A stretch of DNA of 64,000 bases from a virus (lineage: Duplodnaviria; Caudoviricetes), in IMG/VR virus record IMGVR_UViG_3300033121_001334, positions 10,564-74,563 of that record. One strand, given 5' to 3'. Made by a program: the position numbers and the translations under genes. Position 1 is the first letter of the stretch. Each line of letters begins with the position of its first letter. Shown here piece by piece: positions 3,206 to 18,412 of this stretch. Below the pieces are notes generated by a model, which was not told the DNA's origin, did not search any database, and worked only from the letters and a program-made list of their open reading frames with translations.

Positions 3206-3755
3206 ATCCTCTGTTTTCTGAAACTGCTTTACAAAAAACAATCAATTCATCATCAGAGTATCTGTTTTTGGCAAGGTTAGCCATAACTGATACAAACTGA
3301 ACATTTCCTTTAACATATCCTAAAGAATTGTCTATTCTATCTAAACTTGCACCATTTATAGGTTGTTTACCAATCCAGCCGTTAGTGTTTTGAGGAAGAA
3401 CAAGATCCCAACCTGTATAAGGACATTTGCCTTTTTGCTTTTCCCATAAAAAACGAATATATTCTAGGTCTATATCAACTTCTTTATTTGTTCTGGTTTT
3501 AGATACACTTCTTGTTTTTAGGACTGTTGAAAACCATCGAAAAGGAGTTAATTCATCTCTTTGATTTCCAGATTCTTTTTTTATGTTTGGATTGCCCTTT
3601 CTTGGATTAGCCTTATTACCAATAAGGCAAGCACAAGATCTAGAGCAACAATGTTTATATCCTCTTTTTTGCGCAAGGTTGTATTGAGAAATTGTTTTAT
3701 GAAACCTTTTTCTACATTCTTGGTTTTCACATTCAACTTCAATCAAGGTCTTCAT
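3204..3755 (-). CDS. Free-standing HNH-type (His-Me finger) endonuclease
   Basis: N-terminal Cys motifs; CPYTG...SLDRIDNSLGYVKGNVQFVSVMANLAKN. Confidence 0.75.
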   Translation of the reverse strand: MKTLIEVECENQECRKRFHKTISQYNLAQKRGYKHCCSRSCACLIGNKANPRKGNPNIKKESGNQRDELTPFRWFSTVLKTRSVSKTRTNKEVDIDLEYIRFLWEKQKGKCPYTGWDLVLPQNTNGWIGKQPINGASLDRIDNSLGYVKGNVQFVSVMANLAKNRYSDDELIVFCKAVSENRG

Positions 3756-3830
3756 GTTTATTCCGGGTTTTTGTGATAAGAGTTTACTAAATAAATAGTC
3801 TTATCGGCTAAACCCGAAAAATTATTCAAT

Positions 3831-3900
3831 CGGCCCTCCCGCGCTTGAATCGGGTTCTAACGATTATCAGTCGTTTGCTCTACCACATGAGCTAAGAGCC
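3831..3900 (-). tRNA. trnI: tRNA-Ile (GAU) with a degenerate T-arm, possibly a pseudogene
   Basis: Good acceptor, D and AACGA-CTGATAA-TCGTT arms; the T-arm CCCGATTCAAGCGCGG is short and mispaired. Confidence 0.65.
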
Positions 3901-3915
3901 GCTTTCTAACAAAAG

Positions 3916-3990
3916 GGTGATCGACGGGACTCGAACCCGCAATCCTCTGGATCACAACCAGATGCTTAAACCAATTAAGCTACGACCACC
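3916..3990 (-). tRNA. trnH: tRNA-His (GUG) with encoded G-1
   Basis: GGTGGTCG...TCTGG-TTGTGAT-CCAGA...CGATCAC-C; C73 and G-1 identity elements present. Confidence 0.93.
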
Positions 3991-4112
3991 ATCAAGCTGC
4001 TAGAACTCCTTGATTTTACAAGTCAAAACTAGCGGGTACTCATTTTTGAGCAGGTTTAGTCGCTACGCTTCTAAACATGCCTTGCAGGTTTAGCTAACCT
4101 GAGTTTTCCAAA

Positions 4113-4141
4113 TAGGCACAGCCGGACTCGAACCGACAAGC
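4113..4141 (-). pseudogene. 3' half of a split tRNA-Val (UAC)
   Basis: GTCGG-TTCGAGT-CCGGC-TGTGCCT-A; TGTGCCT pairs with GGGCGCA of the 5' half at 4848-4854. Confidence 0.7.
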
Positions 4142-4312
4142 TTACTTCTTTTCAAGTTCCTCAATACGTTTTTCAAGAGATTCAACATACTTCATAAGAG
4201 GTTCAAATGCTCTTGAAAGTCGGTTTAATCTGTCTCTTAGATTGCCACCAGAAGGAATCGCATTATCTGTTCTGGTTAGACTATCAATTTCTTTTTTAAT
4301 ATCAGAATTCAT
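4142..4312 (-). CDS. Small coiled-coil hypothetical protein
   Basis: Start MNSDIKK at 4312 with upstream GGAGG; the longer track call overlaps a tRNA. Confidence 0.55.
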   Translation of the reverse strand: MNSDIKKEIDSLTRTDNAIPSGGNLRDRLNRLSRAFEPLMKYVESLEKRIEELEKK

Positions 4313-4323
4313 TTTTCCTCCAA

Positions 4324-4398
4324 TAGGCCCTCGGGGTGACGATCCCCGTACCTCTTCGGTGTAAACGAAGCGCTCTAGCCAGCGTGAGCTAAGGGCCT
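4324..4398 (-). tRNA. trnV: tRNA-Val (UAC) with non-canonical T-loop AUCGUCA
   Basis: AGGCCCT/AGGGCCT acceptor, CTTCG-TTTACAC-CGAAG, CGGGG-ATCGTCA-CCCCG. Confidence 0.85.
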
Positions 4399-4760
4399 GT
4401 ATGTCGCTCCTGGTAGTGGAGCTTAGCATGGCAATTCCTGCAAAGAACCATGCATTTTTCTATCTCTTTCATAATGCGTTCTAGGCTCATGCCTTTACGA
4501 ACCATTATGCTAACTTCAATTTCTTTTTCCTGCGGATCTCTGTGATGAAAGTCAAGACAAGCAATATGTGATTCTCGACAAACTTCACAAGGATGATTTT
4601 TCCTGTAATCGTTTAGAAACTCCCTGTTTCTTTCAATAATCTTTTTGCGCCAGATTTTTGCATCTTTTTTCTTTTGGGCTGCATTTTCTGGATTTTGATA
4701 CCACTTCTTATTGTATTCGCTATGGTAAGCGAGTTTCTTTTCTCTTTCTTTTTGAGGCAT
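4389..4760 (-). CDS. Free-standing HNH endonuclease
   Basis: CEVC...LDFHHRDP...CMVLCRNCHAKLH; start MPQKERE at 4760 behind an AGGAG RBS in the hairpin ATAACAGG/CCTGTTAT. Confidence 0.85.
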   Translation of the reverse strand: MPQKEREKKLAYHSEYNKKWYQNPENAAQKKKDAKIWRKKIIERNREFLNDYRKNHPCEVCRESHIACLDFHHRDPQEKEIEVSIMVRKGMSLERIMKEIEKCMVLCRNCHAKLHYQERHTGP

Positions 4761-4814
4761 AACAGGTTCTCCTGTTATACCTATTCGACTACTTCTTTTA
4801 CACTCCTTCAATTT

Positions 4815-4854
4815 CCGTGTAAAGGTGGCACTCTAGCCATTGAGTTATGCGCCC
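4815..4854 (-). pseudogene. 5' half of a split tRNA-Val (UAC)
   Basis: GGGCGCA-TA-ACTC-AATGGCTA-GAGT-G-CCACC-TTTACAC-GG, then breaks into the HNH upstream region. Confidence 0.75.
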
Positions 4855-4866
4855 AAACCCTGAAGT

Positions 4867-5196
4867 TTAGTTCTGACCTTCCGGCTGAACTTCTTCAGTT
4901 TTCATTTCTTTCTGCTTCTTGATCTCTTCAGATCTTTCCTTGAACCATCGGCCAATATGGCCCTGCATTGCGTAAATGTGACCCTCGTTCTCGCTAAGTT
5001 CGCTTTCCTTGATGAACCTGGTAAGCTCAAGAGCAAGAGCCTTATTCAGGGTAATAGTGATGTTACCCTTCATATGCTCAGGGTTTGCTGCGTCAAAAGG
5101 CTGAAGAATGAACACAGGCTTCTGAAGCGGACGACGATTTCTGACAGTTTTGGGGGAGTCGGACATGGATTTGCTCCAAGTGGTAAAAGTAAACAC
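4867..5196 (-). CDS. Hypothetical protein
   Basis: ORF between tRNA-Trp and the split tRNA-Val. Confidence 0.6.
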   Translation of the reverse strand: MFTFTTWSKSMSDSPKTVRNRRPLQKPVFILQPFDAANPEHMKGNITITLNKALALELTRFIKESELSENEGHIYAMQGHIGRWFKERSEEIKKQKEMKTEEVQPEGQN

Positions 5197-5240
5197 TCAA
5201 AAGATACATCGTACCTTTCTGCTTTCCACAATCAAGTCAA

Positions 5241-5312
5241 CGCGCCGTGGGAGGTTCGAACTCGCTTTTCCCGATTTGGAGGCGGGCGTCTTACCAATAG
5301 ACGAATCGGCGC
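5241..5312 (-). tRNA. trnW: tRNA-Trp (CCA) with several stem mismatches
   Basis: GCGCCGA...CCCGC-CTCCAAA-TCGGG...GCGAG-TTCGAAC-CTCCC-ACGGCGC; one mismatch each in the acceptor, anticodon and T stems. Confidence 0.7.
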
Positions 5313-5334
5313 AGTGTTACAAGCTATTCTGTTG

Positions 5335-5372
5335 TCAAAGAAAAAACCCCTCAAGTTTTTAGAAGGGATTTT
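5335..5372 (-). terminator. Weak intrinsic terminator-like hairpin; likely the distal half of the original attenuator terminator
   Basis: AATCCCTT-CTAAAAACTT-GAGGGGTT followed by TTTTCTTT. Confidence 0.5.
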
Positions 5373-5410
5373 TCCAAAAGCTTTGAAATAACTGATAAAG
5401 GAGTTCAGTT

Positions 5411-5869
5411 ATGTCAAAGTATCAGGAAATGACCCCAGAAGAAATCGAAGAATACAGAAGAAAACGTAGAGAATATTACCAGAATCTAACAAAAGAAGAA
5501 AAAGAAAGAAGAAGAATACAAAGAAGAGAAAGACGTAGAAAAAATGGAAAACCAGAAAAAGAATTAGAAGCTAATAGAAAATGGGCTGCCAAAAACAATA
5601 TCAAGATTCAAAAGCAAGCTCAAGATTTGAAACAAAAATGTGTAGAACTAAAAGGTGGAAAGTGTTTTGCTTGCAATAATTCTTTCCCGTCTTGTGTTTT
5701 TGATTTTCACCATAGAGATGTTAATCAAAAAGAAGAACAATTATCGGTTTTGATCTACAAAGCTCACGGAGAAATGACTCAAGAACTATTATCTGAACTT
5801 CATAAATGTGATCTCCTTTGCTCAAACTGTCATAGAATACATCACCATGTGAAACAAAAAACCCCTTGA
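5411..5869 (+). CDS. Free-standing HNH endonuclease, antisense to the tRNA cluster
   Basis: CFAC...FDFHHRD...CDLLCSNCHRIHH; RBS in the loop of the hairpin ATAACTGA/TCAGTTAT. Confidence 0.85.
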   Translation: MSKYQEMTPEEIEEYRRKRREYYQNLTKEEKERRRIQRRERRRKNGKPEKELEANRKWAAKNNIKIQKQAQDLKQKCVELKGGKCFACNNSFPSCVFDFHHRDVNQKEEQLSVLIYKAHGEMTQELLSELHKCDLLCSNCHRIHHHVKQKTP

Positions 5870-5884
5870 ATAAACTCAAGGGGT
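5852..5884 (-). terminator. Intrinsic terminator of the Ile/Val/His/Trp attenuator
   Basis: ACCCCTTGA-GTTTAT-TCAAGGGGT followed by TTTTGTTT. Confidence 0.8.
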
Positions 5885-5914
5885 TCCGCAGACCTGTGGA
5901 CATACAGCAAGTAG

Positions 5915-5980
5915 TCAACAGTCGCTACCCCTTGAGGTAATGACATGCCAAATCACCTGATGTACAACTATGCTGTTCAT
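5915..5980 (-). CDS. Attenuator leader peptide MNSIVVHQVIWHVITSRGSDC (21 aa); absent from the ORF track
   Basis: GGAG RBS 9 nt before ATG; codons 4-14 are ATA GTT GTA CAT CAG GTG ATT TGG CAT GTC ATT; codons 15-18 contain CTCAAGGGGT, complementary to the terminator 5' strand. Confidence 0.8.
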   Translation of the reverse strand: MNSIVVHQVIWHVITSRGSDC

Positions 5981-6013
5981 TTCAAAAATCTCCGCCCAAC
6001 ATTGGGCTACCCA

Positions 6014-6042
6014 ACTGTATCGGCTTTTTCCGCAAAAGTCAA
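6014..6042 (-). promoter_or_regulatory. Sigma70-like promoter for the Ile/Val/His/Trp leader
   Basis: TTGACT-N17-TACAGT. Confidence 0.7.
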
Positions 6043-6180
6043 CAATCTTTTCACGCTTTCTCTAGTTTCCTAAAATCCTTCATTTTCCGCTTACGGAAAC
6101 TAGGCCATTTTGGGAAACTGCTAAATGCGATTAAGACCCCGATTCTCACCCATAACGATTATGCTTCACAAATTCCTTCT

Positions 6181-6579
6181 TTATTGCGAAACTTTTCCGT
6201 AAATTTCTGCGCTTTCAATCGTGCCTGTTGGAATAGTAATCAAAGATCTAAAACTGGGCTCTTTGTTTCCAGCTTCAAACATTGAGTCAACTCCAATAGT
6301 AACAAATTCTTTTTTTTCGCCTATAAAAGCAACAAAACCGGAAGTGCAAACCTTGCTTGGCCCGTCAGGAACTTCGCCAGGCTTGAGTACAGAATCCGGA
6401 TCGAATACTGCGCCCTTCCAAATAACCTGAACTATATTCCCAATTTCAGCCTTGGCAAAAAACTCTTCAGAGTTCATAAACTTCTCCTTTACTATCATGT
6501 CTATCGACAAGAGAGTATTACAAGGAGAAAATCCAGAATCCTCTTCAGTTCTGACTATTGAATTTACGAATCGCGCCAA
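6181..6579 (-). CDS. Hypothetical protein
   Basis: ORF in tandem with its neighbours. Confidence 0.6.
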   Translation of the reverse strand: MARFVNSIVRTEEDSGFSPCNTLLSIDMIVKEKFMNSEEFFAKAEIGNIVQVIWKGAVFDPDSVLKPGEVPDGPSKVCTSGFVAFIGEKKEFVTIGVDSMFEAGNKEPSFRSLITIPTGTIESAEIYGKVSQ

Positions 6580-6961
6580 TCAGTGTAGCGACTTCGATTT
6601 TCCAAAGCTCAGGAAACCTGACATTCTCTGGCATCCAAACATCAAAATGAACGTCCAGAATAGACTTGATATTTGCTCTACCAGCAGGATTCAAGCTATG
6701 AACAACAACAATCTTACCATGATGCTGCGTCATGTCTTTCAAGTGACGAGCAACAAAACGACCGTCCTCATGATCGTCTTTGGTAACATGATAATGCTCT
6801 TCTTCGAGATCGTGATCCAAATAGATCACATCATACTCGTTCTTTTTCAACAAGTCGATTGCTTCTTGCGCAGTGATAGCAAAGTCAACAACGCAGCCAA
6901 TAGCTTTCTGTTGAAAGACATCTCGCCTGCTCTTCATGTCGTCAAGGAACAAGATCCTCAT
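6545..6961 (-). CDS. Receiver-fold protein resembling the cyclic-phosphate-processing REC family
   Basis: MRILFLDD...AQEAIDLL...YDVIYLDHDL...VVHSLNPAG pattern. Confidence 0.6.
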   Translation of the reverse strand: MRILFLDDMKSRRDVFQQKAIGCVVDFAITAQEAIDLLKKNEYDVIYLDHDLEEEHYHVTKDDHEDGRFVARHLKDMTQHHGKIVVVHSLNPAGRANIKSILDVHFDVWMPENVRFPELWKIEVATLIGAIRKFNSQN

Positions 6962-7102
6962 TGAATGCGGCAGGCGGGCGATAAACCCGCTTGCCCCTTT
7001 AGATTGCGTTTTCAAAATGCAACCAGCGCCTACCAAACGTACAGGGCCTGCCGCACTTCATTATCGACCAACGCCGCCCTGCCTCTCTGCTGTTCAGAAA
7101 GT

Positions 7103-8296
7103 TTAGTTCTCCTCGTCGCCGCCCTCGTCGTCGTCGTTGCGGCGACCTTCGCTGGTCAGCGACCAGCCGCCATTGTCGTCTCGGTCAGCCAGGCCTTGAG
7201 CCTTGTAGTTCGACAGGTTCTTGCTCAGCTTCTCGCGAGTAAGCTCAGGGAATTCGACAAGAAGCCTGTCGTAGATACCGCCAAGGTCCAGCCGAGAATG
7301 AGTTGTGAGAATGTCTTTGACGCTGGGAAACAGTCTCAGCCTCTTGCCTCTTTGGGGCTTGGTCTGCTTTGCGGTCTTGATAGAGGGATGTCCTCCAAGC
7401 TCGGCAACTCGTTGGTCGAGGGCTGCGAACTTCTGAAAAGCAAGTTCAACGGCGATTTGCGCTGCCTTGGCCGCTTTCTTTGCAAGACCATACTCGGCAA
7501 CGGCCTTCATCCGCTCTTCTTCAGCGAGCTTGAGAGAGGCGCTGTCTTTGCCCAAAAGAACGTCAAGGTCGATGAGGTCGTCGTCGTCAAGGTCGATTGG
7601 AAACGAAGGCTGCGGCTTCGCAACCGCAAGAATGGAAGCGGGAATGGCCGGCGCAGTGGGGCGAGAAGGTTGAGCGACGGTTGGAGGTGTCGGCGGAGGT
7701 GTCTGCGGCTTGAATGGCAAGGCTTCGGGGGTAGAAGGAGCCGTCAGAACCTCAAGGAGAGCGTCATGGGCTTCCCCAATAGGCAAGAGCTTGGCGTCGT
7801 CTTGCATGGGAACCTTGTTGATTTTCCCAATCGCTCTCATGCCGTCGCCGTGGTCCCTCCACTTGTTGGCGAGATTGAAGTTCTGCGTCCAACGCCTTTC
7901 TTGCCCGGCCCAAACGGCTTTCATCTTCGCGCTGAAGATGACAAACTCGCCAGAGGGAGCGCCAGTCGGGACAATGCTCGTTGGGATAGACAGTCTCTCT
8001 CCGAGCGGCTTCCGAAAATCAACAGCAGACGGCATATTCATTACCTCCGTGATGTCAAAGTCGCAACCGCTCTTCCAAAGATAGATATTGGAGAGCTTTT
8101 CTTCTTCGTCATGTCCGTGCTTGAAGGGCCGAACGATGGCCCTTCCATTGCCCAAGACCTTCTTGAGAATGCCCCTATTGGGCTTCCCCCTTATGTCTTT
8201 GTTGATGAGCTTGATATTGCAGATTCGCCCGCTCTGTTGAGCAAGCTCAAGGAGCTTGAGGGCTTGAGCTTCTGAAATTCCTTGACGGCTTTCCAT
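7103..8296 (-). CDS. Hypothetical multidomain protein with a Pro-rich linker and possible C-terminal winged helix
   Basis: 397-aa ORF; ATG about 20 nt after the motif at 8316. Confidence 0.75.
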   Translation of the reverse strand: MESRQGISEAQALKLLELAQQSGRICNIKLINKDIRGKPNRGILKKVLGNGRAIVRPFKHGHDEEEKLSNIYLWKSGCDFDITEVMNMPSAVDFRKPLGERLSIPTSIVPTGAPSGEFVIFSAKMKAVWAGQERRWTQNFNLANKWRDHGDGMRAIGKINKVPMQDDAKLLPIGEAHDALLEVLTAPSTPEALPFKPQTPPPTPPTVAQPSRPTAPAIPASILAVAKPQPSFPIDLDDDDLIDLDVLLGKDSASLKLAEEERMKAVAEYGLAKKAAKAAQIAVELAFQKFAALDQRVAELGGHPSIKTAKQTKPQRGKRLRLFPSVKDILTTHSRLDLGGIYDRLLVEFPELTREKLSKNLSNYKAQGLADRDDNGGWSLTSEGRRNDDDEGGDEEN

Positions 8297-8349
8297 AGTC
8301 TAGAAGTCTAGGCCGAAAGTTTAGTCTTGGGCTTTCTCCGAGTGCAAAA

Positions 8350-8402
8350 TGGCCCCGATGGGATTCGAACCCCTACGCCTTTTTACGGGCTACGGATTTT
8401 TC
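8350..8402 (-). pseudogene. Orphan 3' half of a class II tRNA-Leu
   Basis: AAAA-TCCGTA-GCCCGTAAAAAGGCGT-AGGGG-TTCGAAT-CCCAT-CGGGGCC-A, overlapped by the HNH stop codon. Confidence 0.7.
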
Positions 8403-8827
8403 ACATTTCTTCCTCTCCAAGTTGGAGTCAATGCGTGGCAGTTGCAACACAAAAGTTCTAGATTTTCTTTTCGGTTATCAGTTCTATCACCATTTTTGTG
8501 TTCAATTTCTAAAGGAGCGATCTCTCCTTGCCATTCTGTTATTTTACACTTTTCACATTGATGACCTCGTTCCGAAATCAAATGTGGTTTTAAAGAAGAA
8601 AGCTTATTGTATTCTGACCAGTCTTTTAATCTTTTCCCAACGTTCCAAGCACTACCAGTCCAATGAGAACAATCCAGATTTAGCCTCTGGAGTGTTTTTC
8701 TCATATTGTTGTAGTTGCCACCTGCAACTCTGAGATCAAGGGCCTTCAAAAGCTCTGCCATCGAGTTGACTTCTTTACACTTTTGAATAATTTGTTCATC
8801 GGTGTAGCTTCTGTATTTTCTTGCCAT
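8390..8827 (-). CDS. Free-standing HNH endonuclease
   Basis: CEKC...LEIEHKNGDRTDNRKENLELLCCNCHA; start MARKYRS at 8827 behind GGAGG in the hairpin TAATCCATCT/AGGTGGATTA. Confidence 0.9.
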   Translation of the reverse strand: MARKYRSYTDEQIIQKCKEVNSMAELLKALDLRVAGGNYNNMRKTLQRLNLDCSHWTGSAWNVGKRLKDWSEYNKLSSLKPHLISERGHQCEKCKITEWQGEIAPLEIEHKNGDRTDNRKENLELLCCNCHALTPTWRGRNVKNP

Positions 8828-8893
8828 AATCCACCTCCATAGATGGATTACAATTGGCAATCGAATTATCCTTCTTCGTCTACCAATTCCTAA

Positions 8894-9212
8894 TGGACTG
8901 ACCGGGACTTGAACCCGGATGGTGTTTGAATACCTGCGGATTTTCTTACCACTTCAGCTTTCGCCGACTGCCCTTTTCCATCAAGGTACTTGGGGTCTTA
9001 CGTTTGTGGTCTGGACTGTACCTTCATCCGTTCTGCTTCTTACGAAGAGTTTTGGATGACCCAATTGCAGTCTCTACGGCTTCCTTTGTAGGTTTGCCTC
9101 GGAATTGGGATTTTACACCGTTTCCCGATACTCTGGGTTTCATTTACAAGATTACTCTTGTAACGCTCAAATTGTCTAAGTCCGCTGCGTCTGCCAATTT
9201 CGCCATCAGTCC
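8894..9212 (-). tRNA. trnL: tRNA-Leu (UAA), class II, interrupted by a group I intron after U34
   Basis: Exon 1 (9178-9212) GGACTGATGGCGAAATTGGCAGACGCAGCGGACTT plus exon 2 (8894-8944) AAAATCCGCAGG...GGTTCAAGTCCCGGTCAGTCCA. Confidence 0.9.
8945..9177 (-). ncRNA. Group I intron, 233 nt, no ORF
   Basis: P1 CUU|AGA-CAA-UUUGAG with U.G at the splice site; GUAGAGACUG and GAAGGUACAGUCC form P7; terminal G; same position as the cyanobacterial/plastid trnL(UAA) intron. Confidence 0.9.
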
Positions 9213-9219
9213 AATTATT

Positions 9220-9420
9220 CTATTCTTTGCGCGAATAATTTTGCACAGACAATTTATCTATTTGTTCTTGTTGAGATTTAATAATACTTAAGATTTTCAA
9301 AAAATCTCCAGCCATAACAAAAAAAGTATTATCTCCCTTAATAGGAAATTTTCCTCCTTTACCAGCTTTATCCATTCTTTCTTTAACGTTTTGAATAAGT
9401 TCCTCAATCTCGTTCTTCAT
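9220..9420 (-). CDS. Small hypothetical protein
   Basis: AAGGA RBS; lies between tRNAs. Confidence 0.6.
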   Translation of the reverse strand: MKNEIEELIQNVKERMDKAGKGGKFPIKGDNTFFVMAGDFLKILSIIKSQQEQIDKLSVQNYSRKE

Positions 9421-9430
9421 ATTTGTCCTT

Positions 9431-9826
9431 TCAAAAAGTCCGATGCGTCTGCCGTTCCGCCACAGGGCCGATAATCTGAGAAACAGTCATTTTGCGAACA
9501 GGTAAAATGTTGTGGTCCAAGAAGTGATTGAGGCAATCTTCCACTTCGTCCAAGAAGCTATCGCAGGCGGCAATTCTGTTAGAGGGAAGATCTTCTCTCA
9601 TTTCAAGAATCGTTCTGTAAATCGAAATCAAGTCAATAACTTTGCATTCGATTTTAGATTCTCGCGCAAAAGTAAAAGCGTCCGAAATGAGATCCAAATC
9701 GGGCTTTCTTGCGGATTTCAATGATTGAAATGCAGAAAGAGCTTTTTCTTTGCGAAGCTCGTTCTGGTTTGGAGAGTGAATATCTACTTTAATAGAACGA
9801 AAATCAAGAGTATCAAGCATCGTCAT
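9431..9826 (-). CDS. Hypothetical protein
   Basis: 131-aa ORF starting just after a tRNA 3' end. Confidence 0.6.
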   Translation of the reverse strand: MTMLDTLDFRSIKVDIHSPNQNELRKEKALSAFQSLKSARKPDLDLISDAFTFARESKIECKVIDLISIYRTILEMREDLPSNRIAACDSFLDEVEDCLNHFLDHNILPVRKMTVSQIIGPVAERQTHRTF

Positions 9827-9828
9827 AA

Positions 9829-9902
9829 TAGCTCCAGAGAGATTCGAACTCTCAACCTTACCGCCTTAAACGGTTTGCCTCTGCCGATTGAGCTATGGAG
9901 CC
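9829..9902 (-). tRNA. trnL: tRNA with Leu anticodon UAA and a short variable loop
   Basis: GGCTCCA/TGGAGCT acceptor, ACCG-TTTAAGG-CGGT, GAGAG-TTCGAAT-CTCTC, A73. Confidence 0.75.
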
Positions 9903-9918
9903 AAAGTTTAGTTCTAAA

Positions 9919-9992
9919 TGCTCTTGAGTGGATTCGAACCACTAACAACTAGATTCTGAGTCTAGCGCCTCTGCCGGTTGGGCTACAAGAGC
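9919..9992 (-). tRNA. trnL: tRNA with Leu anticodon CAG and a short variable loop
   Basis: GCTCTTG/CAAGAGC, CTAGA-CTCAGAA-TCTAG, 5-nt variable loop, A73. Confidence 0.88.
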
Positions 9993-10005
9993 GAATTTTA
10001 CTAAA

Positions 10006-10079
10006 TGCCCAGGACTGGATTCGAACCAGCACTGTATTGATTTTGAGTCAATCGCCTCCTGCCGTTGGGCTACCTGGGC
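10006..10079 (-). tRNA. trnL: tRNA with Leu anticodon CAA and a short variable loop
   Basis: GCCCAGG/CCTGGGC, ATTGA-CTCAAAA-TCAAT, 5-nt variable loop, A73. Confidence 0.88.
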
Positions 10080-10100
10080 TTTATTGAAGTATTTCCATAA

Positions 10101-10183
10101 TGCCCCTGAGAGGATTCGAACCTCCACGTCCTTTCGGACACGAGATCCTAAGTCTCGTGCATCTGCCGTTTCGCCACAGGGGC
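10101..10183 (-). tRNA. trnL: tRNA-Leu (UAG), class II
   Basis: GCCCCTG/CAGGGGC, CGAGA-CTTAGGA-TCTCG, GTCC-GAAA-GGAC variable arm. Confidence 0.93.
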
Positions 10184-10192
10184 CTATTTTAT

Positions 10193-10405
10193 TTAGGCCA
10201 TTTTACACGGACTTGTAAAATTCCAGACAGCTTTGATGTCTTCTTCAATCGGAAACTCATGCGATCTATTTCCGTCAACAATAACCTCTTTTACTGATTC
10301 AGTAACGCAAATTGCAGAAACTAATTTTTGAAGCTCGCTCAGAACATCGACCTGAAAATTGTAAGTGTCCTCAGTGGTTATAACAACGATTCTTTTTGTA
10401 CTCAT
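10193..10405 (-). CDS. Small hypothetical protein
   Basis: Start MSTKRIV at 10405 with AAGGA RBS; the longer track call overlaps a tRNA. Confidence 0.55.
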   Translation of the reverse strand: MSTKRIVVITTEDTYNFQVDVLSELQKLVSAICVTESVKEVIVDGNRSHEFPIEEDIKAVWNFTSPCKMA

Positions 10406-10424
10406 TATGATCCTTTCTTTTAAA

Positions 10425-10508
10425 TGGCCTTGACAGGACTCGAACCTGCACTCTCTTGCGAGAACCACCACCTCAAGGTGGCGCGTCTGCCAATTCCGCC
10501 ACAAGGCC
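10425..10508 (-). tRNA. trnL: tRNA-Leu (GAG), class II; first gene of the Leu cluster
   Basis: GGCCTTG/CAAGGCC, CCACC-TTGAGGT-GGTGG, long variable arm. Confidence 0.94.
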
Positions 10509-10517
10509 TTATGTACC

Positions 10518-10551
10518 AAAAGAAAAACCCCATCTTTTTAGGGATGGGGTT
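10518..10551 (-). terminator. Intrinsic terminator of the Leu attenuator
   Basis: AACCCCATC-CCTAAAAA-GATGGGGTT followed by TTTCTTTT, about 10 nt before tRNA-Leu(GAG). Confidence 0.85.
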
Positions 10552-10582
10552 CGTGTGCATCTACGCAACGACTTCCATCCCT

Positions 10583-10633
10583 TTATTCAAGGAGTAGGAG
10601 GCCGCATAACAAGCTGTTGAAGTTAGTATTCAT
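10583..10633 (-). CDS. Attenuator leader peptide MNTNFNSLLCGLLLLE (16 aa); absent from the ORF track
   Basis: Leu codons TTG TTA ... CTC CTA CTC CTT; the stop is immediately followed by AGGGATGG, complementary to CCATCCCT in the terminator. Confidence 0.85.
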   Translation of the reverse strand: MNTNFNSLLCGLLLLE

Positions 10634-10639
10634 GGTTGA

Positions 10640-10667
10640 ACTATATACCTTTTCGGCTAGAAGTCAA
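10640..10667 (-). promoter_or_regulatory. Sigma70-like promoter, probably giving a leaderless transcript
   Basis: TTGACT-N16-TATAGT; the leader ATG is 7 nt downstream of the -10 box. Confidence 0.7.
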
Positions 10668-10952
10668 AAAATCCTTCAACGAACACGAAAGAATTTTGTG
10701 AGTTTTCACCGATTGAGCTTTTTTGGTTTCCGGAAAATTACAAGGAATCTCAATCCCGCAATAAGGACAAAATATCTGTCCAAGCGTTTTTTCTCCGCAA
10801 ACAAGACAATCACTTGATCTTGTAATAGCGGATCGCTTCTTCCAAATCCAACGCCTCAAGCTCGCCCAGAGAAATAAAAACACAACCCCGCTGCTTATAG
10901 ATAAGAGGATTATGCCAGTGTCCATGTACGAGTATCCTAGGCATATGAGCAT
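10641..10952 (-). CDS. Small membrane protein with a Zn-ribbon
   Basis: Hydrophobic N-terminus; CLVC...CPYC; partly overlaps the upstream phosphoesterase ORF. Confidence 0.45.
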   Translation of the reverse strand: MLICLGYSYMDTGIILLSISSGVVFLFLWASLRRWIWKKRSAITRSSDCLVCGEKTLGQIFCPYCGIEIPCNFPETKKAQSVKTHKILSCSLKDFLTSSRKGI

Positions 10953-11469
10953 GAATCATCGAATCAAGCAAGAAAGCTGTGGAGTTACCCTTTGGTTCGC
11001 CCCAGCCCTCATTGTTGCGGTCATAAGTACAAGAAGCAGCCTTGGCAATCTGATGAAGCCTAAACGGAGCTTCATGACAAATCAGAATATCAGGCTTGTT
11101 GTTGATGTAGTCATCAAGAGCAAGCTCCATAGCCTCCCGATTAAGTTGCTCGTCAGGCCACCAATCAACTCCCTCTTTTCTCCACTTCTTATCAACAGAA
11201 TCAGCGCCAGCAACAATGTACAGCCCATTCCACATGCCATACTCAACGGCATACTGCGGATGCGCTCTGCAAATGGCTGGATTGTCATGATTTCCGCGAA
11301 AGAAACGAAAGTTCGCAGGCAGCTTTGGTTCTCGACCAGGAAAGCCAATACCAACGTCGCCAAGACCAAGAACAGTCTTGTTCGCGTACTTATCGCAGAC
11401 GTTCTTGAGCATGGACCATTTCCCATGAACGTCGCCAACAATCACAATATCATTCAGGCTTGGATTCAT
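10810..11469 (-). CDS. Calcineurin-like metallophosphoesterase
   Basis: GDVHG, GDVG, GNHD and HGHWH motifs. Confidence 0.9.
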   Translation of the reverse strand: MNPSLNDIVIVGDVHGKWSMLKNVCDKYANKTVLGLGDVGIGFPGREPKLPANFRFFRGNHDNPAICRAHPQYAVEYGMWNGLYIVAGADSVDKKWRKEGVDWWPDEQLNREAMELALDDYINNKPDILICHEAPFRLHQIAKAASCTYDRNNEGWGEPKGNSTAFLLDSMIHAHMPRILVHGHWHNPLIYKQRGCVFISLGELEALDLEEAIRYYKIK

Positions 11470-12979
11470 CTCTCAAAACTTTCTGGAACTGATACAGCGC
11501 CGCTCCTTCTAAACACTGCTTTGCAAGACCAAACAAAACGCTCAATCTGTCAAGCGTTAGTCCGGCTCTCTTTGCAATACCGCCCAGAAGAAGCTCTCGC
11601 TGTTTTTCGTCCAAAAGCTGAGAGGTGGTGTCAATCGCCACCAAAATGCGCAAGAATCCAACAAGCTCGTCTTCTTCCAACGGAGGGTCAATCTCTTCGT
11701 CATTGCCCAAAAAATCGGTCAGCTTCACAAGCTCGCAATCCTGATAAGGGTTTGCGATGTAGTTAGCGACCTCTTCCGTGAAAGAAGTATCAACGCCAAT
11801 GAAGCCGCCGTCCACCTTATGAATATCAAGATGAATAACCTGACCCGGATTATCAGGGTCAGCTACCTCGATAGTCTTGATGTACTGGCTAATCTTCATG
11901 ATTCGTCTTCTGTTCCGCCGTCGCCAAAGATTCGCTCTCGAACCCTGTCATGGATAGCATAGTCAACCTCAAAGAAGGCGTCAACTTGCCGTCCCATTTC
12001 AAGAGCTTTTTCGATTTCATTTGCGCCGCTATTGGAAAGCACAATCTTCTTGCCGGTAATCCTTTCAAGGGAAGCGATAACCCGCTTCATACCTTCGACA
12101 GGATCAACATTGGCAATCGTCCTGAACGACGGAGCCAGGTCCGCAAATGATGTTGCGTAAACTTGATTGAACGCAAGGTTTTCTCGGTATTCCGTCAGCG
12201 CCCAAGAGTTCGGCGTTGCGGAAACACCATAACGATAGCTCAAGGTCTCGCCCTTGCTGCGAGGCCCTTCAGACTTGCGAGTTTTCCAGTCGTCCGAAAG
12301 GTGACAAAGCACCTTTTCGTTCTCGGCTTGCTTCGGTAAATCAACTTTCATATGCTACATATAGTAGCAGAAAGTTTAGTCTTGGCAAACCAAACTGTGG
12401 TTTCTCAAAGAACTAGACACACTCCAACGACGAGAGTTTCTCGTTCATGTCTACCTGAACGCCTCTGTCTTCAAGAAACTGAACAAGGTCGTATAACTCT
12501 TTGTACGAGTCATGACCTAAAGATTCATTCATAAATAAAAGACCAGACCAAACAGCTTTGCCGCTACGAGGAACCTTGATCTCTTTTCCGTCGAGACAGA
12601 TAGTTGACGGATAAGTTGTGAAGCCAAAGTACACAAAAGCGCCGTTGCTAAGTTCAACCGCAAATACAGCAATACTTTGCGGATTCACAATCACAATCTT
12701 GTCATTGTGAAGCATAATCCCTTGAGACAAAAGCTTTGCGTCAAGCAAGGGATCTTCTGAACCCTCAACCAGGCACTCTTCTCCATAAAAGCGATGAATG
12801 GGGCCTACCCTAATCGCCTTATCCTGTGCTTGTTGTCGCAGGGCAACAAGATGAGCATACATCTCCTTCTTGTCGCAAACAAGCTCAAAATGAAGAGCGC
12901 CAGAATCAGTCTGATGATTCTTGAGTCGCTCGGTTTCCATAAACAATTCCCCTGAACGAACTGGACTGATTGTTGTCAT
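11450..12979 (-). other. Three hypothetical CDS (11450-11899, 11896-12351, 12413-12979)
   Basis: Tandem ORFs with overlapping start/stop codons; no family recognised. Confidence 0.7.
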
Positions 12980-13125
12980 GTTTCTTTGTTGTTGAGAATT
13001 CCCGTGCCCTCAAAGATAGTATGAACTCCCCGCATGAAAATGCAACATTTTACAAGTGAAAACGGCACAATCTAAAAGAAATACATAAAGGCTTCTTGTT
13101 ATACGACCCTGCTAGACCTTTGGAT

Positions 13126-13719
13126 TCAGAAATTCGCCAAATAAGCGGCAATTTCTGTGAAATCCGCAAGGTTGGCGCGATCCCAGGGAGTCTTCCCTGC
13201 ATTGTCCTTCACATGAACGCTTGCACCTTCTTCTTCAACAAGCCGCTTGACTTCATCAAAGTCTTGAGCGTCAACAGCCAGATGCAGGCGGGTCTTCCCA
13301 AACTGACCAACCTTCTGGTCAATGCTTCGAAAAACCGGCTTCTCCTTAAGCCTAGTCTGGAAAACCAAACTAGAAGGCTCTTCAATAACCGGCTCTGGTT
13401 GACTGTTGAAGAACTCAATGATCTCGTCAAAAACTTGAGAAGTTATGTTTTGCAAATCAATAATAGCATTGACCTGCGCCAATCGAGTCAACGCTCCAGG
13501 TTGAAGCTTGCCCTTCTCGGCCCAGGCAGGATGCTGATTCAGGATTTCTCTTTTTGCACGAGAGAAAATAAACTCTCGCAATCTAAAGCGGTCAATTGTC
13601 GAACCGTTATTCGAAGAAAGCCTCCTGGTTAGTTCTTCAATAAGAGGTTCCAGAAGGCTTTCTTCTTTTGGGCTGATTAATGGCATAAACAATCCTTTTT
13701 TCATCAGCAAATGAGCCAA
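13126..13719 (-). CDS. Protein with a C-terminal ankyrin repeat
   Basis: GKTRLHLAV...VKRLVEEEGASVHVKDNAGKTPWDRA; upstream TTGCTT-N17-TACGAT. Confidence 0.75.
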   Translation of the reverse strand: MAHLLMKKGLFMPLISPKEESLLEPLIEELTRRLSSNNGSTIDRFRLREFIFSRAKREILNQHPAWAEKGKLQPGALTRLAQVNAIIDLQNITSQVFDEIIEFFNSQPEPVIEEPSSLVFQTRLKEKPVFRSIDQKVGQFGKTRLHLAVDAQDFDEVKRLVEEEGASVHVKDNAGKTPWDRANLADFTEIAAYLANF

Positions 13720-13877
13720 GTCCGTCTAGCTCACTATCAGGAAATTTGTCGGTTCCGTTTGCCGCCCTCTCCGAGACAGCAAGAATATCGTACATGAAAT
13801 CGCCTTGAAAAGCAAGAAACGAAAGAACTTGCAATGATTTTTTGCAATCGGGGTTAGTTGTGGAAAAGTTGTCACTT

Positions 13878-15548
13878 TCAGTTGAGGCTATCAATCATTT
13901 CCCGCATCGCTTTGTAAGCTCTACGCTCGTCAAAGCACTCGTCAATTCTTGTAAGCAGGGACGCAAACTCTTCATTATGCCAGTTGCAAATTGTATGCGC
14001 AACCTCGTGTTTTGCCAAAGCCATCAACTTTTTCTGGTCTTCTTGGCTCCTGATGCCATACAACAACTTGCCGTCCTCGCTAACAGGATTCAACAACAAA
14101 GCTGAACCGCCGCTAACCGGCATATGCTTCGCTTTGGCGGTGTCCGAAAAAGTCCAACCAATCCCCCAAACAACCTGAGCAATCGATTCGTCGCCCTTCA
14201 TCATTGCGTCAACCGCATACTGACAGGCAACCTTCCACAACATCAAGAGCTTATACATAATAAAACCCTTGTTATAAGTCTTGTCTCCATGCTCCATTAC
14301 AATCCAATTCTCAGGATTGTAAGAATCAATAACCCTCCTAATGTTCTCATTCTCCGTGTCGTCGTCAATGAAAATATCAGGAAGCCCGCTATGAAACTTT
14401 TCGCCGATTCTATTCGGAAGCGTTTCAACAACGGGAGTATTCTTCAGACGATCAAGCATCTCGCCGCCGCCCAAAACCCCGCCAATAACTTCCGCAGCGC
14501 GAAAGGTCGTTGTATCCAAAATCGCTGATCGACGAACTTCCTCGCCTTCAACAGGTCTTGTATAAACCGAACCCGAAGCGCGACCTGCTGCAAAAACCTT
14601 GATTTCTTCGCCAGACTCAATCTTCGGAAGTTTAGTTCCAGCCTTCGGCGAAACCGAGAAGATAAGCCCTCGACCCTTGATCGTTGCGTCCTTCTTCTTG
14701 AAGCGAGGCTTCAGAGCCGAGACCGTATCAACCGCAAGCTCCTGCACAAATGCCTCAAGAACAGAAGAGTACAAAGAGTGCATGCCGTCTCGATTTGCCG
14801 TCAAAACCTCTCGACTCAGATTTGGCTCAACCTCAACAATGACTTGAGCCCTGGCTCCAATCGACTGACTGTACATGACCGCGCCAGCAACTCGCACAAG
14901 CAGCCGATGATTTGCAGCCGACTTGTTAACATAAACGTTCGCAAAAGGAACATTGTTAACAAGAAGCTGACGAGTAAGCTGACGACGATGGTTCCATCCC
15001 GTAAACCGAATGCCATTAACATAAACGTCGCAATACATCTGACTATTGCGAAGATAGTTATCAAGCTCGCTGGAAAGACGATCGTAACTCTCGTCCTCGA
15101 TCTCAACCTGAAGAAGACAACCATGACGAAGATCGACCGTTGCGATTTCGTAAGAACCGCCCTCGCCCTGAACCAAGTTGTCCTGCGTATGAATCGTGTA
15201 GTTCTTCATGGAGAAACAGGTCAACAGTCTGGCTCGACCAAACCCGCCAACCGTTGAGCCGCCAGTCTTGGTCGTCGAACCAAGACTGAAATAAACGTTC
15301 TCCAAAACTTCCCGACTCATGCCGGTGCCATTGTCGTCAAATGAAATCCCAATGACACCGTTGTCTTTCCTGACAATCTCAACATCAATCCGAGAAGCCT
15401 TTGCGTCTGTTGAGTTCTGGAAAAGTTCGCGCCAAAAAGCAAACTGCCAGTTCGAATACATCCGCCGCTCTTTGACGAAAAAAGACTTTGGAACCATTAC
15501 GCTAGGCATTTGGTCGGTATCTCCGTTGGTGAAGCTTACGCTTTTCAA
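13878..15548 (-). CDS. GHKL (Hsp90-like) ATPase with a C-terminal HExxH motif
   Basis: RELFQNSTDA, DDNGTGM, GGFGRA; KHEVAH near the C-terminus. Confidence 0.85.
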   Translation of the reverse strand: MKSVSFTNGDTDQMPSVMVPKSFFVKERRMYSNWQFAFWRELFQNSTDAKASRIDVEIVRKDNGVIGISFDDNGTGMSREVLENVYFSLGSTTKTGGSTVGGFGRARLLTCFSMKNYTIHTQDNLVQGEGGSYEIATVDLRHGCLLQVEIEDESYDRLSSELDNYLRNSQMYCDVYVNGIRFTGWNHRRQLTRQLLVNNVPFANVYVNKSAANHRLLVRVAGAVMYSQSIGARAQVIVEVEPNLSREVLTANRDGMHSLYSSVLEAFVQELAVDTVSALKPRFKKKDATIKGRGLIFSVSPKAGTKLPKIESGEEIKVFAAGRASGSVYTRPVEGEEVRRSAILDTTTFRAAEVIGGVLGGGEMLDRLKNTPVVETLPNRIGEKFHSGLPDIFIDDDTENENIRRVIDSYNPENWIVMEHGDKTYNKGFIMYKLLMLWKVACQYAVDAMMKGDESIAQVVWGIGWTFSDTAKAKHMPVSGGSALLLNPVSEDGKLLYGIRSQEDQKKLMALAKHEVAHTICNWHNEEFASLLTRIDECFDERRAYKAMREMIDSLN

Positions 15549-15582
15549 CCGTATACGGAAAGTTTAGTTCTAAGAGTTAAAT

Positions 15583-15613
15583 AAAAATCCCCCCGCTCCG
15601 AAGAGCAGGGGGG
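15583..15613 (-). terminator. Intrinsic terminator
   Basis: GC-rich hairpin CCCCCC-GCTC/GAGC-GGGGGG with a T-tract on the minus strand. Confidence 0.7.
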
Positions 15614-15642
15614 ACTCTGAAAGAGACGCCGACGTTGCTGGC

Positions 15643-16143
15643 TTACTCGCCCTCGACGACGATTGCGTCCTCGGGGTTGGCGAGGTAGGCGTCCATGCCG
15701 CTGCCAGCCTGGTACTGGCCGCGATCAACCCGGACGCAGACGGGCGACTTGCCCATGCGGAGGTTCGCCAGCTTGCTGAGGGACTGAGCGACCATCGTGG
15801 GGTAGTTTTCCGCGGTCGTGTTGTAGCCGTTCTTCTTGACCTTCTCGCAGATCTGCGTGGTCGTCTGCGCCCGCTTCGCAGTCAACGACTGAGCAACCGC
15901 CGTGATGAGCGAAACCTCGTTGGAAGCGCGAGACTTGCGACCGCCCTTGCGGACGGTGCCGCCCAAGCTCTTGATCTGCGCCTGGACCGTCGCCCGCTCG
16001 GCGTCGATCTCGGCAAGACGAGCCTTCGCCGAAGCGAGGCCAGCCGACCGCGCCGTCTCCAGAGCAGCCTGAGCCGCCGCCATCTGCGCCTCCGCATCCG
16101 CCAAAGAAACCGTCGAACCGTTCTGAGTGCCCTTCGTCGCCAT
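15643..16143 (-). CDS. Basic Ala-rich DNA-binding protein (coiled coil plus winged-helix-like), candidate nucleoid-associated protein
   Basis: Strong AGGAG RBS, distinct high-GC codon use, own terminator. Confidence 0.6.
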   Translation of the reverse strand: MATKGTQNGSTVSLADAEAQMAAAQAALETARSAGLASAKARLAEIDAERATVQAQIKSLGGTVRKGGRKSRASNEVSLITAVAQSLTAKRAQTTTQICEKVKKNGYNTTAENYPTMVAQSLSKLANLRMGKSPVCVRVDRGQYQAGSGMDAYLANPEDAIVVEGE

Positions 16144-16497
16144 TTGTATTTCTCCTACTTATGGCTTCCGTTGACTTCCAAGAACCGACTACTACTTTTC
16201 GTCGCCCTCAGTTGTCTATTCTTCAAAAACCCCAAGAAAGTTTAGTTCGGAGCTTTCTATTCGCCCTTGCCAACCTTCCCTTACGCCCTTTACGTTTTTC
16301 CCAAGAAAGTTTAGTCCTGGGCGGCGTTCCCCTTCTTACTCTAACTCGTACCTTTATACGAGTCAACCTTGTAAACCCCAATTTTCGCGGAAAAGTTTAG
16401 TCCTCCCCAAACTTTCTCTTTAAGGTTTGTAAACAGTTAGGGATACAAAGCCTTTATTACCCATTTCAAAGCCCGCCAAAAGTTTAGTTCTGGCTTT

Positions 16498-17556
16498 TTA
16501 CTCCTCCTTGTAGCCAAATCGAGTCAAATCTCCGACTTCTGCAACTGAAATAATCCCCTCAGCCATATGACGGAAGACGGCCCGTTTGCCCGTAGCCCCA
16601 TACCTGTTCTTCTCGTCGCAAGCAATAATGAATTCCGCAGGATCAAACTTATTCCTGTGAGCAATCATCTCAATGTCAACTTTGTGACCAGGATAAGTTC
16701 CTCCCTTTATTTTACCCTTTCCGTTGACATGCGAAATCAACCAGAAAGAAGTACCAAGAGAAGTAGCCATTGCCTTGTATGTAGTCAGAATAGTCGTAAT
16801 GCCAGAAGAAAAACGAGCCTGACGAGTATCCTGAATTGAATCAACAATCACCAACCTGGGACGATGCTCGTTAATCAACGACTCATGCTGCGTTAGATTG
16901 TCAGAGCTTGACAAAAGAATATTGTGCTTGTTCGTCCAAGATTTCCCGTTGCGACCAAGAAAAACCTCAACCTTCTCTTCGTTCTGAATAAACAGAACCC
17001 CGTTCAAATCCATCTCCTCGTCAGGAGGATAGTCAGGATGACCAACAGCGGCAGCAATCTGCACCGTCAATCGAGTCTTACCCATCCCCTTGGGAGCGCC
17101 GAAGATCAAACAGGCTCCTCTAGGAAGCCCTTCAGTTCCGCTTACGGGGTCAGTGCCAAGAACCTCGTCAACCCCCTTCAGCCCAAGACTAAAGCGAGGA
17201 CTATGAATTCTCTCAATCTCGCTCACATGACGAGCCGTACCGTCATCGTCTCTCAGCATGTCAAGAGCAGAAAGCTCCTGGCATTCGGAAAGATAACGGT
17301 GCTTGCACTTGCGGATTTGTTCCATCAGCCGCTGACGAAACAAAGCGTCATGCTTCGGGGCCACAACCCCAAACTTGTTCGCAATCTTTACCCGCTCGTC
17401 ATCTCGCTCAATCGCAGCCAGATTATGCTTGAAACGAGTCAGGTTGTACAAGATTGTATCATTGTCCGTTTTCTGATGAAGCAAAAGATTGATACGTTGC
17501 TCATTGGTGAGATTCTCTCCCTGATCGGAAGGAATAACATTACTCGACCTCGCCAT
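16498..17556 (-). CDS. radA: RadA/Sms-like RecA-fold ATPase
   Basis: Walker A GAPKGMGKT, Walker B LVIVDSIQ, HVNGKGKIKG and KNRYG (RadA KNRFG motif); lacks the Lon-like C-terminal domain. Confidence 0.8.
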   Translation of the reverse strand: MARSSNVIPSDQGENLTNEQRINLLLHQKTDNDTILYNLTRFKHNLAAIERDDERVKIANKFGVVAPKHDALFRQRLMEQIRKCKHRYLSECQELSALDMLRDDDGTARHVSEIERIHSPRFSLGLKGVDEVLGTDPVSGTEGLPRGACLIFGAPKGMGKTRLTVQIAAAVGHPDYPPDEEMDLNGVLFIQNEEKVEVFLGRNGKSWTNKHNILLSSSDNLTQHESLINEHRPRLVIVDSIQDTRQARFSSGITTILTTYKAMATSLGTSFWLISHVNGKGKIKGGTYPGHKVDIEMIAHRNKFDPAEFIIACDEKNRYGATGKRAVFRHMAEGIISVAEVGDLTRFGYKEE

Positions 17557-17725
17557 GCAGTTCCTCAGTTCTGTCCATAGAACAACCGCCTAACGTGCCA
17601 GCGGTCTGATCGTGCCTATCGGCCTTCAGCCCAAAGTTTAGTCCTACCCCAATACATACCATACAAATAAAAAGGCGTCCCAGCAACAAGCCAAGACGCC
17701 TTTACACGAGTTTTGTAGTTAGCTA

Positions 17726-18412
17726 TCAGTCCTCGTCAGAAGAGAACTCTTCCTCTTCGACCTCCGCCAAATGCTCGGCCTCGCTGATAATCAAACCCGC
17801 CGGAATGCTGTCAACCGTCTTCGTATACTTACGTTTGCGATTGGTATTCAACGGCTGAACAGGATCGCCGTCCGCAATGCCAGTTCTCAACTGAATCTTA
17901 ACTTGACGATTTGCGTCAACAACAATGTCAATGCAAGCCCCAACCTGCGCTAGCTTGAAACCATACGGATGATTGCCGCCTAAACGCTGAAGAACCTCAA
18001 CGTTCTGAAGGAAACGAGTAAAGTCGTCTCGGCCAGTCTCGACATTGCGACATGGACGCTCAGAGAATCGCTGCCACGCAGTCTTGCCAACCTTTATTGT
18101 CTCAGGCTTTGAGGTAATCTCCTGAAACTTCTTATAAACAATAGAAACAGGATGAGGCTTGCCTGTTCCTAAGGCAACAAGAGAGTCGATGATAAAACTG
18201 TATAGACGATTTGCTCCGTAAGGAGAAATAAAACGACCCTGTTCCTGCATTTGACGACGAACTTCAATGAGCTTGTCAGCCTTCAGATGATACTTGCGAG
18301 GAACCTTAGATTCTCCGCCCCTACCGTTCGCAACAGCCTTTCGCGCAGAAAGCGGAATGTTCGCATGACCCGCTATATCCATGTATAACTGTTGCTTGCT
18401 TTTTCTTGGCAT
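17726..18412 (-). CDS. Hypothetical basic protein
   Basis: 228-aa ORF followed by a hairpin terminator at about 17667-17703. Confidence 0.75.
   Translation of the reverse strand: MPRKSKQQLYMDIAGHANIPLSARKAVANGRGGESKVPRKYHLKADKLIEVRRQMQEQGRFISPYGANRLYSFIIDSLVALGTGKPHPVSIVYKKFQEITSKPETIKVGKTAWQRFSERPCRNVETGRDDFTRFLQNVEVLQRLGGNHPYGFKLAQVGACIDIVVDANRQVKIQLRTGIADGDPVQPLNTNRKRKYTKTVDSIPAGLIISEAEHLAEVEEEEFSSDED

Follow-up and report, generated by a model that had tools for sequence, protein, structure and literature searches.

Leader-peptide transcription attenuators of enterobacterial amino-acid operons, such as trpL, leuL, hisL, pheL, thrL and ilvL, contain a short ORF near the promoter that is rich in the sensed amino acid, a stop codon next to segment 2, mutually exclusive 1:2 + 3:4 and 2:3 pairings among segments 1-4, and an intrinsic terminator; the description of pheL gives this logic (PMC3082878). 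The mechanism is known for amino-acid biosynthesis and a few synthetase genes, and in the pheST (pheM) leader of E. coli it is applied to phenylalanyl-tRNA synthetase, a component of the translation apparatus that serves the sensed amino acid. T-box riboswitches also switch between a terminator and an antiterminator in a 5' leader according to the charging state of one tRNA species and raise expression of genes serving that amino acid, but they bind uncharged tRNA directly, need no translation, are 200-300 nt long with conserved stem I and T-box motifs, and control synthetase or biosynthesis genes. In mycobacteria, leaderless polycysteine short ORFs use ribosome stalling at codons for one amino acid as the sensor for downstream operon expression, and these act on translation (bioRxiv 10.1101/834739). 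In the full texts that we searched, which do not cover the whole literature, no description of leader-peptide attenuation of tRNA genes was found, in phages or in cells.

We analyzed a 64-kb stretch, hereafter the window, of a 74.5-kb IMG/VR record that is estimated at 15% complete, that is, a fragment of an uncultured phage of roughly 500 kb. Nearly all genes and all ten tRNAs called by ARAGORN lie on the minus strand. A preliminary description, based on the sequence alone, had noted a promoter followed closely by a Leu-rich 16-codon ORF using five different Leu codons, an antiterminator pairing that overlaps a terminator, and a protector hairpin formed by the Leu codons themselves, all upstream of six tRNA-Leu genes. 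When the minus strand was read directly, every one of these sequence details proved correct. The sigma70-like promoter at 10667-10640 consists of TTGACT (10667-10662), a 16-nt spacer and TATAGT (10645-10640), and the A of the ATG at 10633 is the seventh base after the -10 box. This was the best promoter-like site in 8500-12500, with 10 of 12 matches, and although a loose scan found 6 promoter-like sites against 5.1 expected, the stricter pattern TTGACW-N16/17-TANAGT occurs only 3 times in 64 kb against 0.10 expected, and two of the three precede leader-like ORFs. The ORF at 10633-10583 (ATG AAT ACT AAC TTC AAC AGC TTG TTA TGC GGC CTC CTA CTC CTT GAA TAA) reads MNTNFNSLLCGLLLLE followed by TAA, with the Leu codons TTG, TTA, CTC, CTA, CTC and CTT. 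Of 587 short ATG ORFs of 10-30 codons in the window, 7 have at least 37.5% Leu and 2 have a run of four Leu.

Segment 1, the protector strand, lies at 10605-10589 and covers Leu codons 12-15. Segment 2, AGGGATGG (10582-10575), starts 1 nt after the stop codon and is the exact complement of segment 3, CCATCCCT (10547-10540); this 8-bp antiterminator encloses a small inner hairpin at 10571-10552. Segment 3 overlaps the 5' arm of an intrinsic terminator at 10552-10518, the best terminator-like site in 8500-12500, and the 2:3 helix shares CCATC with that arm. The terminator has a 10-bp G+C-rich stem, GAACCCCATC / GATGGGGTTT, with an 8-nt loop; its arms include AACCCCATC (10551-10543) and GATGGGGTT (10534-10526), and the T tract TTTTTCTTTT spans 10527-10518. 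The duplex between the 30 nt around the stop codon and the terminator 5' arm was better than those of random 30-mers from the same DNA (p = 0.0005).

The first gene, tRNA-Leu(GAG) at 10508-10425, starts 9 nt after the T tract, and is followed by tRNA-Leu(UAG) at 10183-10101, tRNA-Leu(CAA) at 10079-10006, tRNA-Leu(CAG) at 9992-9919 and tRNA-Leu(UAA) at 9903-9828, all called by ARAGORN. The CAA, CAG and UAA tRNAs have a short variable arm, and the CAA and CAG tRNAs carry A73. The sixth gene, tRNA-Leu(UAA) at 9212-8894, is interrupted by a 233-nt intron (9177-8945) between U34 and A35 and was found once introns were allowed or the intron was removed. A 70-codon ORF with a Shine-Dalgarno sequence lies between the first two tRNAs, at 10405-10193. 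A GAACTAAACTTT motif directly abuts the 5' end of the tRNA-Leu(UAA) at 9903-9828 and could be a second promoter independent of the attenuator.

To determine whether the leader can adopt the alternative structures, we folded the 124-nt RNA. The minimum-energy fold contains the protector hairpin 1:2 and the terminator 3:4 (-34.8 kcal/mol, z = -2.7 against shuffles). Folded alone, the 1:2, 2:3 and 3:4 helices have energies of -14.9, -20.9 and -14.9 kcal/mol, so that 1:2 plus 3:4 is better than 2:3 while 2:3 is better than 3:4 alone, which is the relation a leader-peptide attenuator needs. We then masked the RNA as a ribosome would. With a ribosome at the stop codon, segment 2 is removed and only the terminator can form, whereas a ribosome with its A site at Leu codons 8, 9, 12 or 13 leaves the full 8-bp antiterminator, which in the window replaces the terminator even in the full-length RNA; codon 14 leaves 6 bp and codon 15 leaves 3 bp. 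The four productive codons (UUG, UUA, CUC and CUA) are read by four different anticodons of the cluster, although CUG, which is read by the CAG tRNA, is absent from the leader. Folding during transcription had been proposed as a test in the preliminary description, and in the absence of a ribosome the thermodynamic minimum of the nascent RNA at 95-100 nt was already the antiterminator, so the untranslated default depends on folding kinetics. These folds are in silico only, and the response of read-through to the supply of charged tRNA-Leu was not measured. The stop-codon and Leu-codon masks gave the expected geometry in the window, in two related contigs (L002 and L003, below) and in the Leu leader of an unrelated phage.

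The gene upstream of the leader encodes a metallophosphoesterase, whose close homologues led to three related phage contigs. In L002, the neighboring gene is 86% identical in protein and 88.6% in DNA, the leader is 95% identical, and the only change in the ORF is synonymous (ACT to ACC); L025 shows the same change but is cut by the contig end. The promoter is kept in L002, L025 and L003. The informative case is a sister lineage, L003 with its duplicates (L004, L033, L034; represented by G002, a 494-kb record that is 98% complete). Its leader is only 68% identical, thus differing at 32% of positions, more than the neighboring gene (25%), yet each functional part is retained with a different sequence: TTGACA-N17-TAGAGT with an ATG 7 nt later, the ORF MKNASLLSLSLLLLS with seven Leu codons (TTG, TTA, TTG, CTA, CTA, CTC and CTC), the antiterminator GAGGGGCAG / CUGCUCCUC across its TGA stop, and the terminator ACCCUGCUCCUC / GAGAAGUAGGGU. 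The inner hairpin is present with a changed sequence in L002 and L003. Helix energies in L003 are -13.1 (1:2), -25.3 (2:3) and -16.2 kcal/mol (3:4), which follow the same order of preference, and the stop-adjacent duplex gave p = 0.025. In L003, however, the full-length minimum keeps the terminator even with a stalled ribosome, so read-through there must be kinetic. The non-Leu residues differ between the two peptides while the pattern SLL..LLLL-x-stop is kept, and we infer that helices of 8-12 bp would not survive 32% divergence without selection. The 70-codon ORF is absent from the compact cluster of the sister phage.

Only these two diverged lineages of the leader were compared, too few for formal covariation statistics, and because MAFFT did not align their stems in register, we compared independent folds instead of counting covarying pairs. 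The phosphoesterase has a graded series of homologues at 65-85% identity, but a metagenome scan, a scan of genome contigs, a second viral scan with an alignment and a tblastn search of GenBank phages gave no further orthologues of the Leu leader, and pattern scans for the promoter spacer and for the Leu-codon stretch returned known relatives plus chance hits.

Compared with the enterobacterial leaders, the locus shows each sequence-level feature of the mechanism, namely a short ORF near the promoter enriched in Leu (6 of 15 residues after Met, binomial p = 8e-4), an intrinsic terminator between that ORF and the downstream genes, mutually exclusive helices, and the masking geometry. It differs from them in that the downstream genes are tRNA genes and not biosynthetic enzymes, so the loop would sense and correct the tRNA supply itself, in that the element is in a phage with a probably leaderless start, and in that the Leu codons are of five kinds, whereas leuL has one repeated rare codon. 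It is not a homologue of these leaders: no leader family of Rfam, Leu_leader included, was reported in 1-20000 at E <= 1, and in 10480-10700 at E <= 10 there were only sub-threshold hits driven by the hairpin. The pheST leader controls a synthetase gene in a cell and not tRNA genes in a virus. A Phe leader before the E. coli tRNA-Phe genes was considered as a precedent and rejected, since pheV has a plain promoter and no such ORF. The stem I, specifier loop and antiterminator bulge of T-boxes were not detected by the same Rfam searches, and the leader is only about 116 nt long.

With regard to the mycobacterial short ORFs, the output here is transcription termination through an intrinsic terminator, and the downstream genes are tRNAs without ribosome-binding sites, so the locus does not share their mode of action. 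Neighboring genes have clear Shine-Dalgarno sequences, for example AAGGA before the 70-codon ORF and GGAGG before the HNH gene, while the Leu leader has none within 15 nt of its ATG, and the -10 box ends 6 nt (window) or 7 nt (L003) before the ATG. This fits a leaderless or nearly leaderless mRNA in both lineages, but as no 5' end was mapped, promoter spacing and the missing Shine-Dalgarno sequence do not settle whether the transcript begins at the start codon, and translation of the leader therefore depends on an unproven leaderless start. The sibling Ile/Val/His/Trp and Ser leaders described below do have a 5' UTR and a Shine-Dalgarno sequence, so a leaderless start is not essential to the concept.

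To see whether analogous leaders occur elsewhere, we examined two GenBank huge-phage genomes that were picked up only because their tRNA-Leu genes resemble those of the window. LR756501 (735 kb), an unrelated phage, has a block of tRNA-Leu genes, five called by ARAGORN plus a weaker tRNA-like match first. Before it lies a 22-codon ORF, MNNILHINLLNSLCLLGIKLIG (ATG AAT AAC ATT CTA CAT ATT AAC CTT CTG AAC AGT TTA TGC CTC TTG GGT ATA AAG TTG ATT GGG TGA), in which seven Leu codons cover all six synonymous codons. Its last codons, UUGAUUGGG, pair with the 5' arm CCCAAUCA of a following terminator, and the duplex test gave p below 0.0006. The same genome has a leader containing SKHSKHFSSSSKWF, with an antiterminator and a terminator, before Trp, His, His, Phe, Lys and Ser tRNAs. 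LR756511 (595 kb) has MHTFSASLRLSSYSLSSLLYSNVRRGT, with all six Ser codons, a Shine-Dalgarno sequence, a TTGACA-N16-TAAAGT promoter and a strong terminator, before four tRNA-Ser. The window itself has a second cassette, MNSIVVHQVIWHVITSRGSDC at about 6042-5852, before Trp, Val, His, Ile and Val tRNAs, which is conserved in G002 and in a 57%-identity relative, L036 (MTQIHAHHIVVITHWTAGGA). Each leader is mostly richest in the amino acids of its own downstream tRNAs; the exception is the Ser leader, which scores 0.38 on the Trp/His/Phe/Lys/Ser set, which contains Ser, against 0.31 on Ser alone. Binomial p-values were 8e-4, 5e-5 and 1e-3 in the three Leu leaders and between 1e-3 and 5e-5 for all leaders but that of L036 (p = 0.14 against the tRNAs in the part of the sequence that was obtained).

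Taken together, the locus is likely, in our view, a leader-peptide transcription attenuator that gates transcription by host RNA polymerase into the phage tRNA-Leu cluster, and the interpretation given in the preliminary description is supported as far as sequence analysis allows. In this model, transcription starts at or within a few bases of the ATG at 10633 and a ribosome translates the 16-codon leader. If charged tRNA-Leu is plentiful, the ribosome runs to the TAA and covers AGGGAUGG (segment 2), or may already have been released, leaving segment 1 free to pair with segment 2; either way, the terminator would form and the transcript would end near 10518. If the ribosome stalls at Leu codons 8, 9, 12 or 13, segment 1 is masked, segment 2 pairs with CCAUCCCU, the terminator cannot form, and polymerase would read into the tRNA-Leu GAG, UAG, CAA, CAG, UAA and UAA genes, resulting in negative feedback on the tRNA-Leu supply. 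What the analysis demonstrates is the sequence elements, their alternative pairings and energies, and the conservation of their design, while the start site, translation of the ORF, ribosome-polymerase coupling, and the direction and size of the response are inferred, no expression, 5'-end or termination data having been examined. If the model is true, the ribosome would report a shortage of a decoding capacity and the phage would answer by making those tRNAs, which would explain why tRNA genes of huge phages are sorted by amino acid, give a direct read-out of what phage tRNAs are for (supply on demand, possibly against tRNA depletion or tRNA-targeting defences), and offer compact, codon-specific sensors for synthetic biology, the element being small (about 150 nt) and self-contained.

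Among other explanations, a plain promoter followed by a leaky terminator or insulator survives best, though we consider it unlikely. In this case the tRNAs would be made by constitutive partial read-through, and the Leu codons of an untranslated ORF would be a by-product of a pyrimidine-rich strand (CUCCUACUCCUU) needed for RNA pairing. The missing Shine-Dalgarno sequence, the location of four of the six Leu codons in the paired C/U-rich segment, and the terminators found directly before tRNAs without leaders in the sister phage are consistent with this view. However, the UUG and UUA codons lie outside the hairpin and are conserved in L003, the LR756501 leader spreads all six Leu codons along 22 codons, the reading frame, ATG position and stop-adjacent antiterminator are kept at 68% identity, and the leaders before Ser, Ile/Val/His/Trp and Trp/His/Phe/Lys/Ser clusters match their own tRNAs, which pairing constraints cannot explain. 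Less likely still is a translation-independent RNA element, either a small RNA of about 116 nt with its own promoter and terminator, an anatomy that the locus shares and whose fold is more stable than shuffles, or a riboswitch-like leader that senses something other than ribosome position, such as uncharged tRNA. Against this, no Rfam family, T-box included, comes near its threshold, sequence conservation is low while the codon content is kept, and the alternative pairing is anchored on the stop codon in three independent leaders. A gene for a small hydrophobic peptide, for example a type I toxin-like or membrane peptide, is improbable despite the hydrophobic LLxxLLLL stretch, since 15-16 residues are too short to span a membrane, the non-Leu residues are not conserved between lineages, and analogous leaders before other clusters are polar (Ser, His, Lys). 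Chance juxtaposition of a short ORF, a promoter-like site and a gene terminator, each common enough in the case of short ORFs and promoter-like hexamers, is very unlikely given the joint conservation of the parts at 68% identity, the statistics above and the independent analogues.

A broader reading, which we regard as only slightly more probable than not, is that large phages carry a general and so far undescribed class of regulators in which leader peptides are written in the codons read by the tRNAs behind them, often covering all synonymous codons, and turn on a block of phage tRNA genes when ribosomes stall on those codons. Such an on-demand supply could compensate for loss of host tRNA during infection or for tRNA-cleaving host defences, and the Leu element would be one clean single-amino-acid member. 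The suggestion in the preliminary description that many synonymous codons let one leader monitor several isoacceptors remains an inference, as the diversity of codons gave p = 0.12 (window), 0.67 (G002), and about 0.05 and 0.11 in the two other phages, which is suggestive only.

The design is specific and not universal. Among more distant phages, L005 has a terminator-like hairpin but no Leu-rich ORF, L007 has tRNA-Ala with a plain promoter, and L036 has no Leu cluster next to the phosphoesterase gene. The Glu cluster of G002 has the same promoter type and a short ORF but no terminator and little Glu, and was not counted. A terminator before a tRNA is not in itself evidence, since the Gly and Ala heads of G002 simply follow the terminator of a protein gene. 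G002 has 72 tRNAs sorted largely by amino acid, and of its 47 cluster heads, six have a terminator-like hairpin within 170 nt, among which only the two strongest hairpins, those of the Leu and Trp/Val/His/Ile clusters, are preceded by a cognate-rich short ORF.

In the window, the 12-mer RRMCTAAACTTT occurs 20 times, against 0.14 occurrences expected, for example at 16490-16237 (four copies), 9914-9903, 7109-7098 and 8327-8316. Of these copies, 19 are on the coding strand and mostly lie just upstream of genes. One copy ends exactly at the 5' end of tRNA-Leu(UAA), and this arrangement is kept in L003, a contig of the sister phage lineage. The motif is probably a phage-specific promoter or a processing site, and it could give part of the Leu cluster an expression that is independent of the attenuator. 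In addition, the third sigma70-like promoter of the window, in the region 16366-16144 on the minus strand, opens a 5' UTR of about 190 nt ahead of the gene at 16143-15643, where two copies of the CTAAACTTT motif are located inside the UTR and two more just upstream of the promoter.

A second cassette was found at 6042-5852 on the minus strand, which consists of TTGACT-N17-TACAGT, a Shine-Dalgarno sequence, the ORF MNSIVVHQVIWHVITSRGSDC, the segment CUCAAGGGGU pairing with the terminator arm ACCCCUUGAG, and a terminator. This cassette lies upstream of Trp, Val, His, Ile and Val tRNAs, and it is conserved in G002, the genome record of the sister phage, and in L036, a more distant relative. Analogous leaders were also observed in two unrelated huge phages. 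In LR756501.1, a Leu leader with all six Leu codons is present at positions 2193-2335 of the retrieved segment L178, and a Ser/Lys/His/Phe/Trp leader is present on the reverse strand of the segment L195, at about 207.3-207.6 kb of the genome, whereas LR756511.1 carries a Ser leader with all six Ser codons at positions 1058-1295 of the segment L179. Each of these leaders sits before a terminator and the matching tRNAs. The Ser leader of LR756511 ends in TAG, and both this phage (segment L198) and the sister phage (G002:206506-206579, locus L117) carry a tRNA with the amber-reading anticodon CUA, which ARAGORN calls Pyl.

When we compared the window with L003 and with the closer relative L002, an insertion of about 110 nt was found at 10705-10815 on the minus strand, at the 3' end of the phosphoesterase gene. 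The insertion changes the C-terminus and opens a CxxC...CxxC frame, which is zinc-ribbon-like and runs into the -10 box. Within the Leu cluster, the three tRNAs with the Leu anticodons CAA, CAG and UAA, at 10006-10079, 9919-9992 and 9828-9903, respectively, are only 74-76 nt long and have a short variable arm, in contrast with the usual bacterial class II tRNA-Leu, and all of them have A73. Similar short tRNA-Leu genes are annotated in Streptomyces and Caulobacter phages.

In the region 8350-8893, an HNH endonuclease ORF (8860-8390) is flanked by tRNA-like halves, namely a D-arm-like start at about 8890 and a T-arm/acceptor end at 8400-8355, and the arrangement looks like a tRNA gene split by an endonuclease cassette. 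Furthermore, a group I intron was detected at 1283-1498 on the minus strand with a score of 61.2 bits, above the Rfam gathering score.
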